A program made the position numbers and the translations under genes. A DNA stretch of 44,979 bases, taken from the IMG/VR virus record IMGVR_UViG_3300029244_000004. One strand, 5' to 3'. Origin of the DNA: a virus. The notes beneath the pieces were generated by a model that worked only from the letters and a program-made list of their open reading frames with translations, made no database searches and had not been told where the DNA came from. Of the stretch, positions 11,164 to 18,227 are shown piece after piece; within the stretch, counting starts at the first letter, position 1, and each line of letters starts with the position of its first letter.

Positions 11164-11382
11164 TCATCCAATAATATCGATGCGTTCAATTTCGTCCTCC
11201 GTAAATCCGATCAGCAAACCTTTTTCATTCTCCACATCGAACTCCAGAAACTCATTTCCATCATCGTCGAAGTCGTAATCATACCCATAGAGCTCCCCAA
11301 TCGTCATGCGCCCGCTTGTGGAAAAAACTTTAATTTTCTTTCCGAAGTAAATCTCAGGATTTTCAATTATCATTTTTTCCAC
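11164..11382 (-). CDS. small acidic protein, candidate immunity protein for the MuF-borne toxin
   Basis: 72 aa (..YGYDYDFDDDGNEFLEFDVENEKG..). Its start overlaps the last 13 nt of the toxin-bearing gene. It is AT-rich like the toxin segment. Confidence 0.55.
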   Translation of the reverse strand: MEKMIIENPEIYFGKKIKVFSTSGRMTIGELYGYDYDFDDDGNEFLEFDVENEKGLLIGFTEDEIERIDIIG

Positions 11383-16082: not shown

Positions 16083-16721
16083 TCAAAGCTCCATATTGGG
16101 GTAAACATTTTCCCACACTTTCATATGGTAAATATTTACCTCGCCATAGTTCGCGTCGAAGATCTTTCTAACTCCATAGCCCATCCGCTCACTGACATTT
16201 TTCAGTTTTCTCCAGTCAAAGTCTTTATGAGATCGTCCGTTCATGTGTGCGACTCTCTTGATGGAATACCATTCCCTGCTTCTGTCCAGTTCTGCCTCCA
16301 GCGCTTTTCTTTTGTCCTGCTCTCCTTTTAAGGCTGTACACAACTGGATCATCACATCTGGATTCAAGATTGCCGCCTCAAGAGTTTCTGGGGTCATGTA
16401 AGCTCCATGCTTACGGACAGATGGAATCACTTCGCTTGTTACCCACCGCTTGAATTTTTTTGCTGTGGGAAGTTTGCTGGAGAGCACCAGAGAATACAGG
16501 CCACTCTCGTTGATGATGGTCATGTTTCTGGACTGGCTGCCGTCGTGAATCCCGACGTTAGCTTTATCCTCGTCATCCACGTGCCGATCGAGCGCATCAC
16601 GTGGGTTGCTGTACCCCAGGGCCTGGGCAACATCCTTGCCTACCAGCCACGGTTCGCCCTTTACTTCAACAGTGCGGATGACTCCAAACTCTGGGCTTTC
16701 AAAGAGCTTCATTTTGTTCAT
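16083..16721 (-). CDS. Bro-N / antirepressor family protein
   Basis: The N-terminal FGVIRTVEVKGEPWLVGKDVAQALGY..PRDALDRHVD is a Bro-N pattern, followed by a KilAC/ANT-like C-terminus. Confidence 0.75.
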   Translation of the reverse strand: MNKMKLFESPEFGVIRTVEVKGEPWLVGKDVAQALGYSNPRDALDRHVDDEDKANVGIHDGSQSRNMTIINESGLYSLVLSSKLPTAKKFKRWVTSEVIPSVRKHGAYMTPETLEAAILNPDVMIQLCTALKGEQDKRKALEAELDRSREWYSIKRVAHMNGRSHKDFDWRKLKNVSERMGYGVRKIFDANYGEVNIYHMKVWENVYPNMEL

Positions 16722-16761
16722 GTGAGAGGTCTCCTTTCGTATATGTTAGGAGAGGTGGCGG

Positions 16762-17084
16762 GGGCATATCCCGCCATGCGTTACCCCTCAATTTAAGCTT
16801 TCCGCCCCCATCTCCCGCAACGAGGCACGGCATATATACCCCTTCCGGGGTATGCTCCGGGTTTGGTCAGGCTTTCCGGGGGCCTGCTCTGTAAGGACTT
16901 GCGTCCTGGTGCCACCGCCCGCCTCATGCGGCGAGGAGCGGCATATAAAGCACCACCACATGGATGATGCTTTGTCCGGCATACACCGAACTTCTCTGGA
17001 GCCGAGAGGCGGGTAATGAGCCGCCACGACCTCGCCGCCGTTCCCATGGCTGCGGTCCGGCCTTCTGCTACAGCACTCGGCATA
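16762..17084 (-). promoter_or_regulatory. GC-rich non-coding region with five same-orientation (C/G)GGCATA repeats (candidate pac / regulatory array)
   Basis: Exact CGGCATA occurs at 16828, 16939, 16977 and 17078, with GGGCATA at 16762 (plus-strand coordinates). Only R-rich spurious ORFs are present, and there are many GC hairpins. Confidence 0.4.
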
Positions 17085-17091
17085 TTTTTGA

Positions 17092-17247
17092 CTATCTGAT
17101 ACAGGTACTCATAAAAATCATAAAAGACAAGTTCCAGACCATTCCGTTTAGGTCGTCTTTCTCCTTTGATTTGAAGGCTAAATAAGCATTTACGATCATA
17201 AGAACAAGGCAGATAAATTCTGCAATGATTTTGATTTTTTCCATCAT
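17092..17247 (-). CDS. 51-aa two-TM membrane micro-protein (AT-rich island)
   Basis: GGAGCA lies before ATG 17247. Translation: MMEKIKIIAEFICLVLMIVNAYLAFKSKEKDDLNGMVWNLSFMIFMSTCIR. GC content is far below that of both flanks. Confidence 0.5.
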   Translation of the reverse strand: MMEKIKIIAEFICLVLMIVNAYLAFKSKEKDDLNGMVWNLSFMIFMSTCIR

Positions 17248-17760
17248 TCTTGCTCCATCATCACATAATTGCAGCAGAGGACGTTTAACTCGGATAATCC
17301 ATCTGCCTATAACGCCGAGTATCACATGTGCGCTTCCCGCTTAATTGTCACACCCTTATGTGCGGCCGGTCATTCCGTCCTGGTACACATAAGGCAGTTT
17401 TCAGCGGGATAGCGCCGGGGCAGGTCATAGCTGCCGCCGCTTCCGCCTCCATGACAGGCGGGCTCCGTTACCTATCCCCCAGGGCAACGGTTGCTTTAAT
17501 CCTTGGGGTAAGCGTCTTTCCGCAGTCAGCTCCTTGGCCTTTGGAGCGCATTGTCTAATGCCCGTAAAGGGCGATGTTGCCGCATGGAGGGCGAGACCCT
17601 CCGGCCCGGATGTGTGGGCTGATGCGCTCGTGCGGCGTATGTACCCCGGCAAGCGCCGGGGTTGAGGAGGAAATAGAAGAAGCGAATGGGAGCGCAGGTG
17701 TATACGCTCCCACACTCCCATTGTCGCATACATATTTCTGCTCACTCATAAAACTTTATG
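17248..17760 (-). ncRNA. large structured non-coding RNA candidate (family unassigned; strand inferred from context)
   Basis: The region has no credible ORF. It contains nested and crossing helices: 17330-17341/17403-17415, 17354-62/17386-94, 17544-51/17622-29, 17579-84/17631-36, 17586-91/17597-602 and 17644-50/17655-61. Alternative helices lie at 17685-17722. Confidence 0.4.
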
Positions 17761-17761
17761 A
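17746..17761. promoter_or_regulatory. perfect inverted repeat TCATAAA-ac-TTTATGA (candidate operator)
   Basis: Read directly. It lies 40 nt downstream of the HTH gene 17801..18013, at the start of the non-coding region. Confidence 0.35.
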
Positions 17762-17800
17762 ATTCGCAATATTTTCTATGAGATTATGAAAGTTTAGGGC

Positions 17801-18013
17801 TTACTCTTCCTCCATTTTGCAGAGTTCATCGAGGCTAATGTGATAATATGCCGCAATCAGCTTTAGGGCTGTCATTTTTGGCTCCACTTCCCCTCTCTCA
17901 TATTTTCGTAATGCATCAGGGCTTAAGCCCATTAGCTGTGATGTAACCGTCATGCTCCTGACCGGCCTCATAGACTCCCTTAACCTTCTTAGCCGCTCTG
18001 GAAACTCGTTCAT
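17801..18013 (-). CDS. XRE-family HTH protein
   Basis: MNEFPERLRRLRESM...LMGLSPDALRKYERGEVEPKMTALKLIAAYYHISLDEL. Confidence 0.65.
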   Translation of the reverse strand: MNEFPERLRRLRESMRPVRSMTVTSQLMGLSPDALRKYERGEVEPKMTALKLIAAYYHISLDELCKMEEE

Positions 18014-18026
18014 CCTACCACCATCC

Positions 18027-18227
18027 TTATAATCCCTGCTGTTCCAGAGGGCAGTCAAAGGATACTCTTTTTTTCCGCTTTCCTATTTCCTTGGATTCAC
18101 AGTGGTCCACGTCTCCCACTCTACGGCATCCGGTATCTAATAGATGGTTGCAAAAGGGCGCATCCTTGGAATTATTGATACCTCGCCAGTAGACGCAGGT
18201 TTTCCCCTTGTCACAGATTTCGACCAT
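18027..18227 (-). CDS. Cys-rich small protein
   Basis: GGGAGGAGAG lies before ATG 18227. Translation begins MVEICDKGKTCVYWRG..FCNHLLDTGCRRVGDVDHC. Confidence 0.5.
   Translation of the reverse strand: MVEICDKGKTCVYWRGINNSKDAPFCNHLLDTGCRRVGDVDHCESKEIGKRKKRVSFDCPLEQQGL

Follow-up and report, generated by a model that had tools for sequence, protein, structure and literature searches.

On its minus strand, a 44,979-nucleotide (nt) viral DNA (IMG/VR record IMGVR_UViG_3300029244_000004, hereafter the window, meaning this whole stretch at its full length) carries a non-coding cassette of 1,079 nt (16722-17800) between an HTH_3 gene of 85 amino acids (aa; 17801-18058), with YopX and other early genes upstream, and a Bro-N gene (16083-16721), followed by a terS-like gene, TerL (Terminase_3), and an SPP1-type portal gene. 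All genes flanking the cassette are encoded on the minus strand, and all features below are given in minus sense. The cassette was delimited from the open reading frame (ORF) list, Pfam searches of the neighboring genes, and block-wise conservation across 104 loci; it consists of about 10 structured-RNA modules, whose order varies among more than 200 gut-phage contigs, and of one small ORF. A sequence-only reading had placed a candidate large structured RNA of the ROOL/GOLLD class at positions 17248-17760, at the early/late boundary. That stretch is the 5' half of the cassette, and the structured ORF-free region extends past it to 16722-17800, interrupted by a 51-aa ORF that looks like a real gene. 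A structured and conserved RNA region at this boundary was retained, and the single large RNA was not. The stretch is probably the 5' half of a phage cassette of the transfer RNA (tRNA) island type, which would release small structured RNAs.

The reported lack of a credible ORF in 17248-17760 was borne out. The arginine-rich ORFs on both strands and the other ORFs in the gap had no matches in Pfam or PHROG, indels of 1, 2, and 3 nt separate the window from its close relatives, and conservation is mosaic. The frameshifting indels, together with the absence of Pfam and PHROG matches, indicate that the gap is non-coding with the exception of the 51-aa ORF. The GC-rich and helix-dense character was also evident, with a GC content of 0.59 at 17326-17745 against 0.514 for the whole window, and folding of 17326-17800 against dinucleotide shuffles gave z = -6.2 for the minus strand and z = -3.5 for the plus strand. 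ARAGORN found no tRNA and no tmRNA in the whole window. Rfam 15, including the ROOL and GOLLD models, gave no match in the window at the gathering score and only noise in 16600-17900 at E<=10; ROOL and GOLLD were likewise not found in 13 related loci.

The core motif (module C, 17328-17416, covariance model R1) is the 3' domain of a larger unit, termed type 1. Its outer helix P1 pairs GCGCU-A-UCCCGCU (17403-17415) with AGCGGGA-AGCGC (17330-17341) over 12-13 base pairs (bp) with one bulged A. Inside P1 are a near-invariant 5' loop, GAAAACU (17396-17402), the helix P2 (17391-17395 with 17352-17356, GCC.. with ..GGU), a variable cap (17357-17390, 12 to ~90 nt among copies), and a near-invariant 3' loop, GUGACAAUUA (17342-17351, motif form GUGACAAU(C)UA). 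All parts of the motif definition, namely, P1 (12-13 bp, or a 7-bp inner helix with a pseudoknot), the loops, P2, and the cap, were found in the window. The total length of P1 is preserved among copies, either as 12-13 bp or as 7 bp plus a pseudoknot of 4-6 bp.

Base pairing of P1 and P2 is under selection in the minus-strand RNA. In 42 distinct sequences, 91.4% of the cells are standard pairs, compared to 30-50% with the 3' partner slid by 1-3 columns, and double changes occur in 8 of the 18 pairs. The covariation score of 0.175 (0.106 after shuffling) was reached by none of 500 shuffles, and the first P2 pair varies among G·U, A-U, and G-C. The helices correspond to the 12-bp bulged helix (17330-41/17403-15) and the enclosed hairpin (17354-62/17386-94) that had been picked out from the letters. 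Pairs that form in minus sense only were U·G (9) and G·U (31) in alignment A1 and U·G (17, 25, and 12) in alignment A3. Model R1 found exactly one copy in the window, at 17321-17420 on the minus strand, with 86.3 bits and E = 9e-23, a match that is partly by construction since the window copy is identical to a sequence from which R1 was built; the plus strand scored 6.4 bits. The strand difference in R1 score, the G·U pairs restricted to minus sense, and the folding z-scores identify the minus strand as the RNA sense.

R1 gave 98 matches in 100 loci outside model building. In 51 distinct independent copies, the inner part of P1 and P2 hold, with 82% paired and a score of 0.179 versus 0.113, and on the other strand dozens of the U·G pairs would turn into C·A mismatches. 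GAAAAC was present in 81 of 81 distinct copies collected by the 3'-side anchor only, and variation of the 3' loop in the 5'-anchored set was limited to two or three positions (GUGUCAAU, GUGAGCAU, and GUGGCAAU). The core motif is a widespread and apparently undescribed RNA motif. A literature lookup by motif sequence returned chance matches only, and no paper was found under 'RAGATH-21'.

Relatives were collected by exact-pattern scans of IMG/VR with three anchors, which gave 48, 63, and at least 120 contigs and 209 usable loci (L numbers). When the window was mapped onto them, conservation appeared in blocks that recur in other orders, combinations, and genome positions. The block 16997-17085 precedes 16939-17003 in L003, L004, and L028, and 16801-16946 abuts 17323 in L009 and L015. 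The cassette is thus a chain of independently exchangeable structured-RNA modules. Since the modules separate, are reordered, and occur elsewhere in relatives, they are not all parts of one obligatory fold, and the proposed RNA of about 500 nt dissolves into modules, the largest coherent unit being about 200 nt.

Among GenBank phages, only the Flavonifractor plautii phages Chenonceau and Castelnaud have similar DNA, at the same genome position and in separate pieces. The hosts are accordingly gut Clostridia, and the cultured phage Castelnaud (L002) carries modules B, C, and D. In the GenBank records ON453904 (L001, 2935-3418) and ON453903 (L002, 2978-3478), coding sequences for a 'hypothetical protein' are annotated across the homologous RNA modules; these are probably gene-caller artifacts. 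A scan of one genome per species over 185,579 species returned eight stretches, of which two were true matches, both on phage-sized contigs, which indicates that the core motif is phage-borne and not chromosomal.

In relatives (more than 200 gut-phage contigs), the modules lie between and directly beside genuine, co-oriented tRNA genes. Several flanks of relatives align as tRNA halves on the minus strand of the window. ARAGORN detected 139 tRNA genes, spread over 103 of the 209 loci; where a locus has the core motif, its tRNAs (137 in total) are without exception on the motif strand, and 131 of them lie <=1 kb from the motif. The most frequent 4-nt leader before these tRNAs is AUAU, and the junction AUAU↓G is common to modules and tRNAs. 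The plus-strand 'GGCATAT' repeats in the window arise because AUAU↓GCC, the leader with the start of the acceptor-like stem, heads each module. The distances are also fixed: in 17 of 18 contexts with a tRNA 3' of the motif, the tRNA 5' end is 16-20 nt past the start of the 3' strand of P1, and in another architecture (type 4, below) 68-74 nt separate the end of the upstream tRNA from GAAAAC (43 contexts). In L093, RAGATH-21 (RF03097, 80 bits) was found at 11279-11347, about 220 nt upstream of a core-motif copy and adjoining a tRNA, which shows that RAGATH-type motifs share such arrays.

Neighboring genes were compared by ORF clustering over 199 loci. A small terS-like gene lies ~420 nt downstream of the motif in 86 loci and TerL ~1.3 kb downstream in 69, and in 41 loci the array is placed between TerL and the portal gene instead. 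In L045, a near-consensus extended -10 promoter, TTGATT-17-TGgTATAAT, heads the array just after the TerL stop. The L045 array itself spans 2.1 kb and includes two tRNAs and a copy of the small hydrophobic ORF. Immediately after the RNA array and before the portal gene, L011 and L045 have a small conserved ORF with a CxxC...CxxC, zinc-ribbon-like pattern (MKIDVYCPVCAAAGINHGKGRLLMQVDSK...CKACKKNIKIELKGEKSA).

The largest coherent unit of the stretch, the type-1 unit, is a multi-hairpin RNA of ~200 nt (17328-17528) found in the window and in ~30 distinct relatives. It begins with an invariant UGAC (17525-17528, in the context AUGACNG), followed by the hairpin H1 (GCG-GAAAGA-CGC, 17512-17523), with C-G to U-A covariation, the long covarying hairpin H2 (17477-17508), and the hairpins K1 (17443-17461, loop GUCAUGG) and K2 (17419-17435, loop CUAUGAC), before the core motif. 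The K1 stem shows double changes in three of six pairs. The 7-nt loop of K2 is complementary to the K1 loop, and the only variable pair between the two was G·U (9), A-U (4), or G-C (3) with no mismatch, which is suggestive of a kissing contact.

A commoner architecture, type 4 (79 copies, 33 distinct), occupies the entire spacer between two tRNAs; a type-4 unit searched against Rfam had no match. Its order is hairpin A, hairpin B, the joiner (A/U)GGAAAUGACAAUG, a 7-bp inner P1, the core-motif loops, and P2. The 3' strand equivalent to the outer P1 pairs here with the loop of hairpin B, forming a pseudoknot, and changes between type-4 classes are compensatory (GACGRC:GUYGUC, GCCGA:UCGGC, CUGC:GCAG, GCGC:GCGC, GCCG:CGGC, GACGAU:AUCGUC, and UCGU:GCGA). 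The maintenance of the outer-P1 pairing by two topologies is the best evidence that selection acts on the fold as well as on the sequence. Several stretches of type-1 and type-4 units that are predicted to be unpaired share the tetranucleotide UGAC. They are AUGACNG at the 5' end, CUAUGAC in the loop of K2, the joiner AAUGACAAUG, and GUGACAAU in the 3' loop, corresponding to 17525-17528, 17423-17429, and 17345-17351 in the window, and in L126 and others. UGAC could be a protein-binding site or provide alternative partners for GUCA of the K1 loop.

Upstream of the type-1 unit, module D (17578-17636) is a tRNA-like three-way junction known in 38 distinct variants. It is composed of a leader, ACAUAC, an acceptor-like stem, GCCGCA/UGCGGC, a middle arm of 4 bp, GCCC/GGGC, and a T-arm-like hairpin, GGAGGG-UCUCG-CCCUCC, which corresponds to the previously noticed hairpin 17586-91/17597-602. 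In the alignment, 95.7% of the cells are paired, compared to 41-50% when slid, and the acceptor-like stem shows A-U to C-G and G-C changes. Module D is too short for a tRNA and is without an anticodon arm, about 25 nt separate the acceptor-like and T-arm-like stems, and the loop UCUCG/UCGCGCC is not T-loop-like; it received no ARAGORN call and no match to RF00005 even at E<=10 (16600-17900). Some copies (L002, L007, L051, and L062) have GGCUGAAAACCA at the D-arm position, in which the string CUGAAAAC equals the core-motif 5' loop.

The two crossing helices that had suggested a pseudoknot or a switch had different fates. One, 17579-84/17631-36, is the conserved acceptor-like stem of module D. 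The other, 17544-51/17622-29, was rejected as a chance match, as AUGCGCUCC is kept while its partner changes (GCAGCACGAUGC) without compensation in L005, L014, and L034, and the modules that it would join also separate.

Two linker hairpins, GCCC-UUUAC-GGGC (17560-17572) and GCUCC-AAAGGCCAA-GGAGC (17529-17547), were recognized in an alignment of 29 relatives; both (17529-17572) are missing from units directly after a tRNA-like module. The hairpin ACCCCGG-CGCUUG-CCGGGGU (17643-17662), described earlier at 17644-50/17655-61, is present and kept in a handful of close relatives. Module E (17682-17727) is a long hairpin, GCGA-CA-AUGGGAGUGUGGG / CCUGCGCUCCCAU-UCGC after UAU, kept in ~27 loci. The two helices at 17685-17722 had been taken as mutually exclusive; a duplicated GGGAG gives rise to both, and the compensated version in L010 (AUGAGAGUGGA/UCCACUCUCGU) supports one long hairpin instead.

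In the 3' half of the cassette, module B (16997-17081) is tRNA-like with an encoded CCA end, AUAU↓GCCGAG...GGCGG-CUCAUUAC-CCGCC-U-CUCGGC-UCCA; it is kept in 27-30 loci, occurs in the other order in L003, L004, and L028, and was not called by ARAGORN. A minihelix predicted by folding (16907-16942, GCCGCU-C-CUCGCC-GCAUGA-GGCGGG-C-GGUGGC-ACCA) is likewise preceded by AUAU and ends in CCA. It is kept in 43 loci, with compensated versions (CCUAUC.../GGAUAUGG and GCCGC/GCGGC) in relatives. Module D, module B, and the minihelix were ruled out as tRNAs by the lack of any ARAGORN call in the window and of any RF00005 match at E<=10. Further hairpins were predicted by folding at 16757-16906 (GGAC-GCAA-GUCC, CAGGC...GCCUG, ACCCC-GGAA-GGGGU, GCCGUGCC...GGGGGCGG, and GGCGGG-AUAUGCC-CCCGCC); this part is 81% identical to phage Chenonceau, is kept in 16-20 loci, and is followed by the ribosome-binding site of Bro-N.

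The 51-aa hydrophobic ORF (MMEKIKIIAEFICLVLMIVNAYLAFKSKEKDDLNGMVWNLSFMIFMSTCIR, 17092-17247) lies outside the RNA modules, with GGAG 8 nt 5' of its ATG. It forms an AT-rich island with a GC content of 0.37 between two blocks of 0.59, its DNA is kept in ~20 loci, and the substitutions in the L045 copy are conservative. Pfam and PHROG searches returned no family for it. The ORF appears to encode a genuine small membrane protein, which may be a moron resembling a toxin or holin. A hairpin just upstream (ACUCGG...CCGAGU, 17288-17320) has a compensated counterpart in L056 (CUAGG/CCUAG) and may thus regulate the small ORF.

We propose that the cassette would be transcribed as one precursor, either together with the late (packaging) operon at whose start it lies or, like the arrays of some relatives, from a promoter of its own. 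RNase P would then cut at the conserved AUAU↓G before each acceptor-like stem, and tRNA 3'-end enzymes would trim behind the acceptor-like stems, so that the spacer RNAs would be freed as discrete and stable small RNAs. For bacterial RNase P, an acceptor stem with a T-arm is a sufficient minimal substrate, and U at -1 and G at +1 are preferred. The sequence features of such minihelix substrates were taken as an acceptor-like stem on a T-arm-like hairpin (~12 bp), a single-stranded leader, G at +1, U at -1, and an optional NCCA. They were found in AUAC↓GCCGCA...GGAGGG-loop-CCCUCC-A-UGCGGC-A (17578-17640), in AUAU↓GCCGCU...GGUGGC-ACCA (16907-16946), and in AUAU↓GCCGAG...CUCGGC-UCCA (16997-17085).

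In this scheme, the functional surface would be the invariant loop of the core motif, which is kept at a constant distance from the neighboring tRNA. The invariant loops, the preserved length of P1, and the fixed distance to the tRNA point to an interaction surface or a catalytic core, not a mere stability element. Most plausibly, the surface would contact a tRNA, a tRNA-like partner, or a protein. A more specific proposal, that the core motif is a new functional RNA class for tRNA handling, either a double-T-loop elbow-docking device or a self-cleaving ribozyme, is doubtful. As a docking device, it could be the fourth natural one of the double-T-loop kind, in which P1, of about the length of an acceptor/T-arm stack, holds the motif 4-7 nt from the 5' end of the next tRNA; it could clamp the neighboring tRNA or its precursor in cis and act as a phage-encoded molecular ruler or chaperone. 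Such a device would have to interdigitate its T-loops in three dimensions and stack on the G19:C56 platform of the tRNA. As a ribozyme, it would be a new self-cleaving class punctuating phage tRNA arrays.

Several points weigh against the proposed processing cassette. That the cassette is transcribed, is cut by RNase P, and yields stable products is inferred. The window cassette holds non-tRNA modules only, and what comes after its core motif is a hairpin and then a small ORF instead of a tRNA or tRNA-like element, so that the logic of a spacer between tRNAs is borrowed from relatives. A consensus scan of the window cassette, in itself uninformative, gave neither sigma-70 promoters nor terminators. 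Some 'invariant' positions are partly fixed by the exact-match collection, the close relationship of many copies inflates the shuffle statistics, and covariation is thin for the K1-K2 contact and for module D. A catalog of 8,495 candidate RNAs from IMG/VR exists (PMC10690425) and may already list parts of the cassette; absence from Rfam is no proof of novelty.

Alternative explanations were weighed against the same evidence. Self-cleavage of the core motif (17328-17416), and perhaps of other modules, as ribozymes that cut a polycistronic tRNA/RNA precursor appears unlikely. Hammerhead, twister, and HDV-like (theta) ribozymes do cluster in phage regions, beside phage tRNAs. The motif has ~19 near-invariant loop nt flanked by covarying helices with an optional variable cap, and the connection of its outer helix is nested in one form and pseudoknotted in the other, as in permuted ribozyme classes. 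It occupies inter-tRNA spacers at fixed spacing, and one such array contains RAGATH-21, a class found near twister and hammerhead ribozymes. However, no Rfam ribozyme model, hammerhead, twister, twister-sister, pistol, hatchet, hairpin, and HDV-like included, matched the window region at E<=10 or a type-4 unit at E<=5, a cleavage site cannot be inferred, and RNase P and RNase Z already account for processing at the tRNA borders. The position exactly at the early/late boundary, upstream of the terS-like and TerL genes in most loci, would also suit a cis-acting leader of the late operon (an attenuator, antitermination RNA, or processing/stability element) controlling Bro-N, terS, and TerL, and module E offers alternative pairings and a U-rich 3' flank. 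Yet the modules also occur between TerL and portal, in shuffled order, interleaved with tRNAs, and in one relative behind their own promoter, and the consensus scan of the cassette gave no terminator-like sites. Such portability makes a gene-specific leader quite unlikely.

A DNA-level element, such as a pac or cos site, a terminase-binding region, or a recombination hot spot with incidental hairpins, would explain why the array always adjoins terminase or portal genes, and the repeated GGCATAT junctions could promote recombination and account for the mosaicism. The pairing is strand-specific, though, with many G·U pairs that are A·C on the other strand, the covariance model separates the strands by 86 to 6 bits, and the co-oriented tRNA genes keep fixed spacing, which leaves a DNA element very improbable. 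A single ornate RNA of at least 500 nt of the ROOL/GOLLD class shares with the cassette the helix density, the phage location, and, in relatives, the position beside tRNAs, but it has hardly any probability left given the lack of an Rfam match, the separation and reordering of the modules, and the failure of the long-range helix that was proposed to join them. Decaying tRNA pseudogenes or relics without present function would fit a window without an intact tRNA, in which several modules retain only acceptor-like and T-arm-like stems. Relics are extremely improbable because the modules persist in hundreds of phages that are otherwise mosaic, with pairing preserved by compensatory changes.

Under the preferred explanation, a cassette of tRNA-island type that releases small structured RNAs, the spacers of phage tRNA islands, usually taken as 'junk' or misannotated as hypothetical proteins, as in the two GenBank Flavonifractor phages, are themselves conserved folded RNAs that lie where the packaging operon begins and recur in hundreds of phage contigs from the human gut. 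Should the core motif bind tRNA or cleave RNA, tRNA biology would gain a new RNA class, with bearing on how phages manage or protect their tRNA supply, and in either version the phage spacers would be active RNA machines and not passive linkers. Whatever its function, the motif model lets annotators mask false ORFs, and the cultured carrier phage Castelnaud makes the question directly testable.

Compared to known systems, the cassette would be in kind a phage tRNA island with embedded non-tRNA RNAs, outside every Rfam family tested. ROOL and GOLLD RNAs are likewise ornate and occur in phages and prophages, often beside tRNA genes. They are single folds of 500-800 nt (~580 or 800), in contrast to the modular units of 40-250 nt in the cassette, which match no model, so that a habit is shared and not a family. 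The RAGATH motifs (RAGATH-21, RF03097) and the ribozymes that cluster with them share the type of neighborhood, the small size, the conserved loops, and the covarying stems; no RAGATH or ribozyme match was found in the window, and the core motif differs in sequence and architecture.

In RNase P, the double T-loop J11/12-J12/13 serves as the docking site of the tRNA elbow (PMC3664808 and PMC4919913), and double T-loop modules are built of interdigitated pentanucleotide T-loops with the canonical core AG..A and UG..A (PMC3664808). The loop strands of the core motif contain two U-G-N-N-A pentads, UGAAA (17399-17403) and UGACA (17346-17350), and substitutions fall on the N positions (UGUCA and UGGCA; L003, L097, and L016). 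The topology is the same, with pentads on both strands of an internal loop flanking a variable hairpin, and the core motif is tightly linked to tRNAs. The known modules combine AG..A with UG..A, whereas both pentads of the core motif are UG..A and AG..A is absent, and the resemblance is a lead only. A T-loop pentad starting from U83 (UGUGA) was dropped because U83 covaries with position 27. Resemblances noticed by eye to twister (only ACUGCC in common), hairpin-ribozyme loop B (AGAAACA/GUAUAUUAC), the k-turn, the 11-nt GAAA receptor (CUAAG), and RNase P CR-I (GGAAAGAC) were rejected, having no covariance-model support or consistent register.

Spacer RNAs of Escherichia coli tRNA operons (3'ETS-leuZ and fragments of internal transcribed spacers, ITS) are short, weakly structured base-pairing sponges. 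They too occupy positions between tRNAs or behind them and are set free by RNase P or RNase E, in contrast to the phage spacers, which are highly structured, with invariant loops and pseudoknots. The tRNA cluster of phage T4 includes co-transcribed small stable RNAs, 'species 1 and 2' or RNA C and D. There is no sequence or structure relationship to these, the window has lost or never had true tRNAs, and its modules are shuffled among phages; what the two systems have in common is non-tRNA structured RNAs within a co-oriented phage array of tRNA type, presumably freed by tRNA-processing enzymes.

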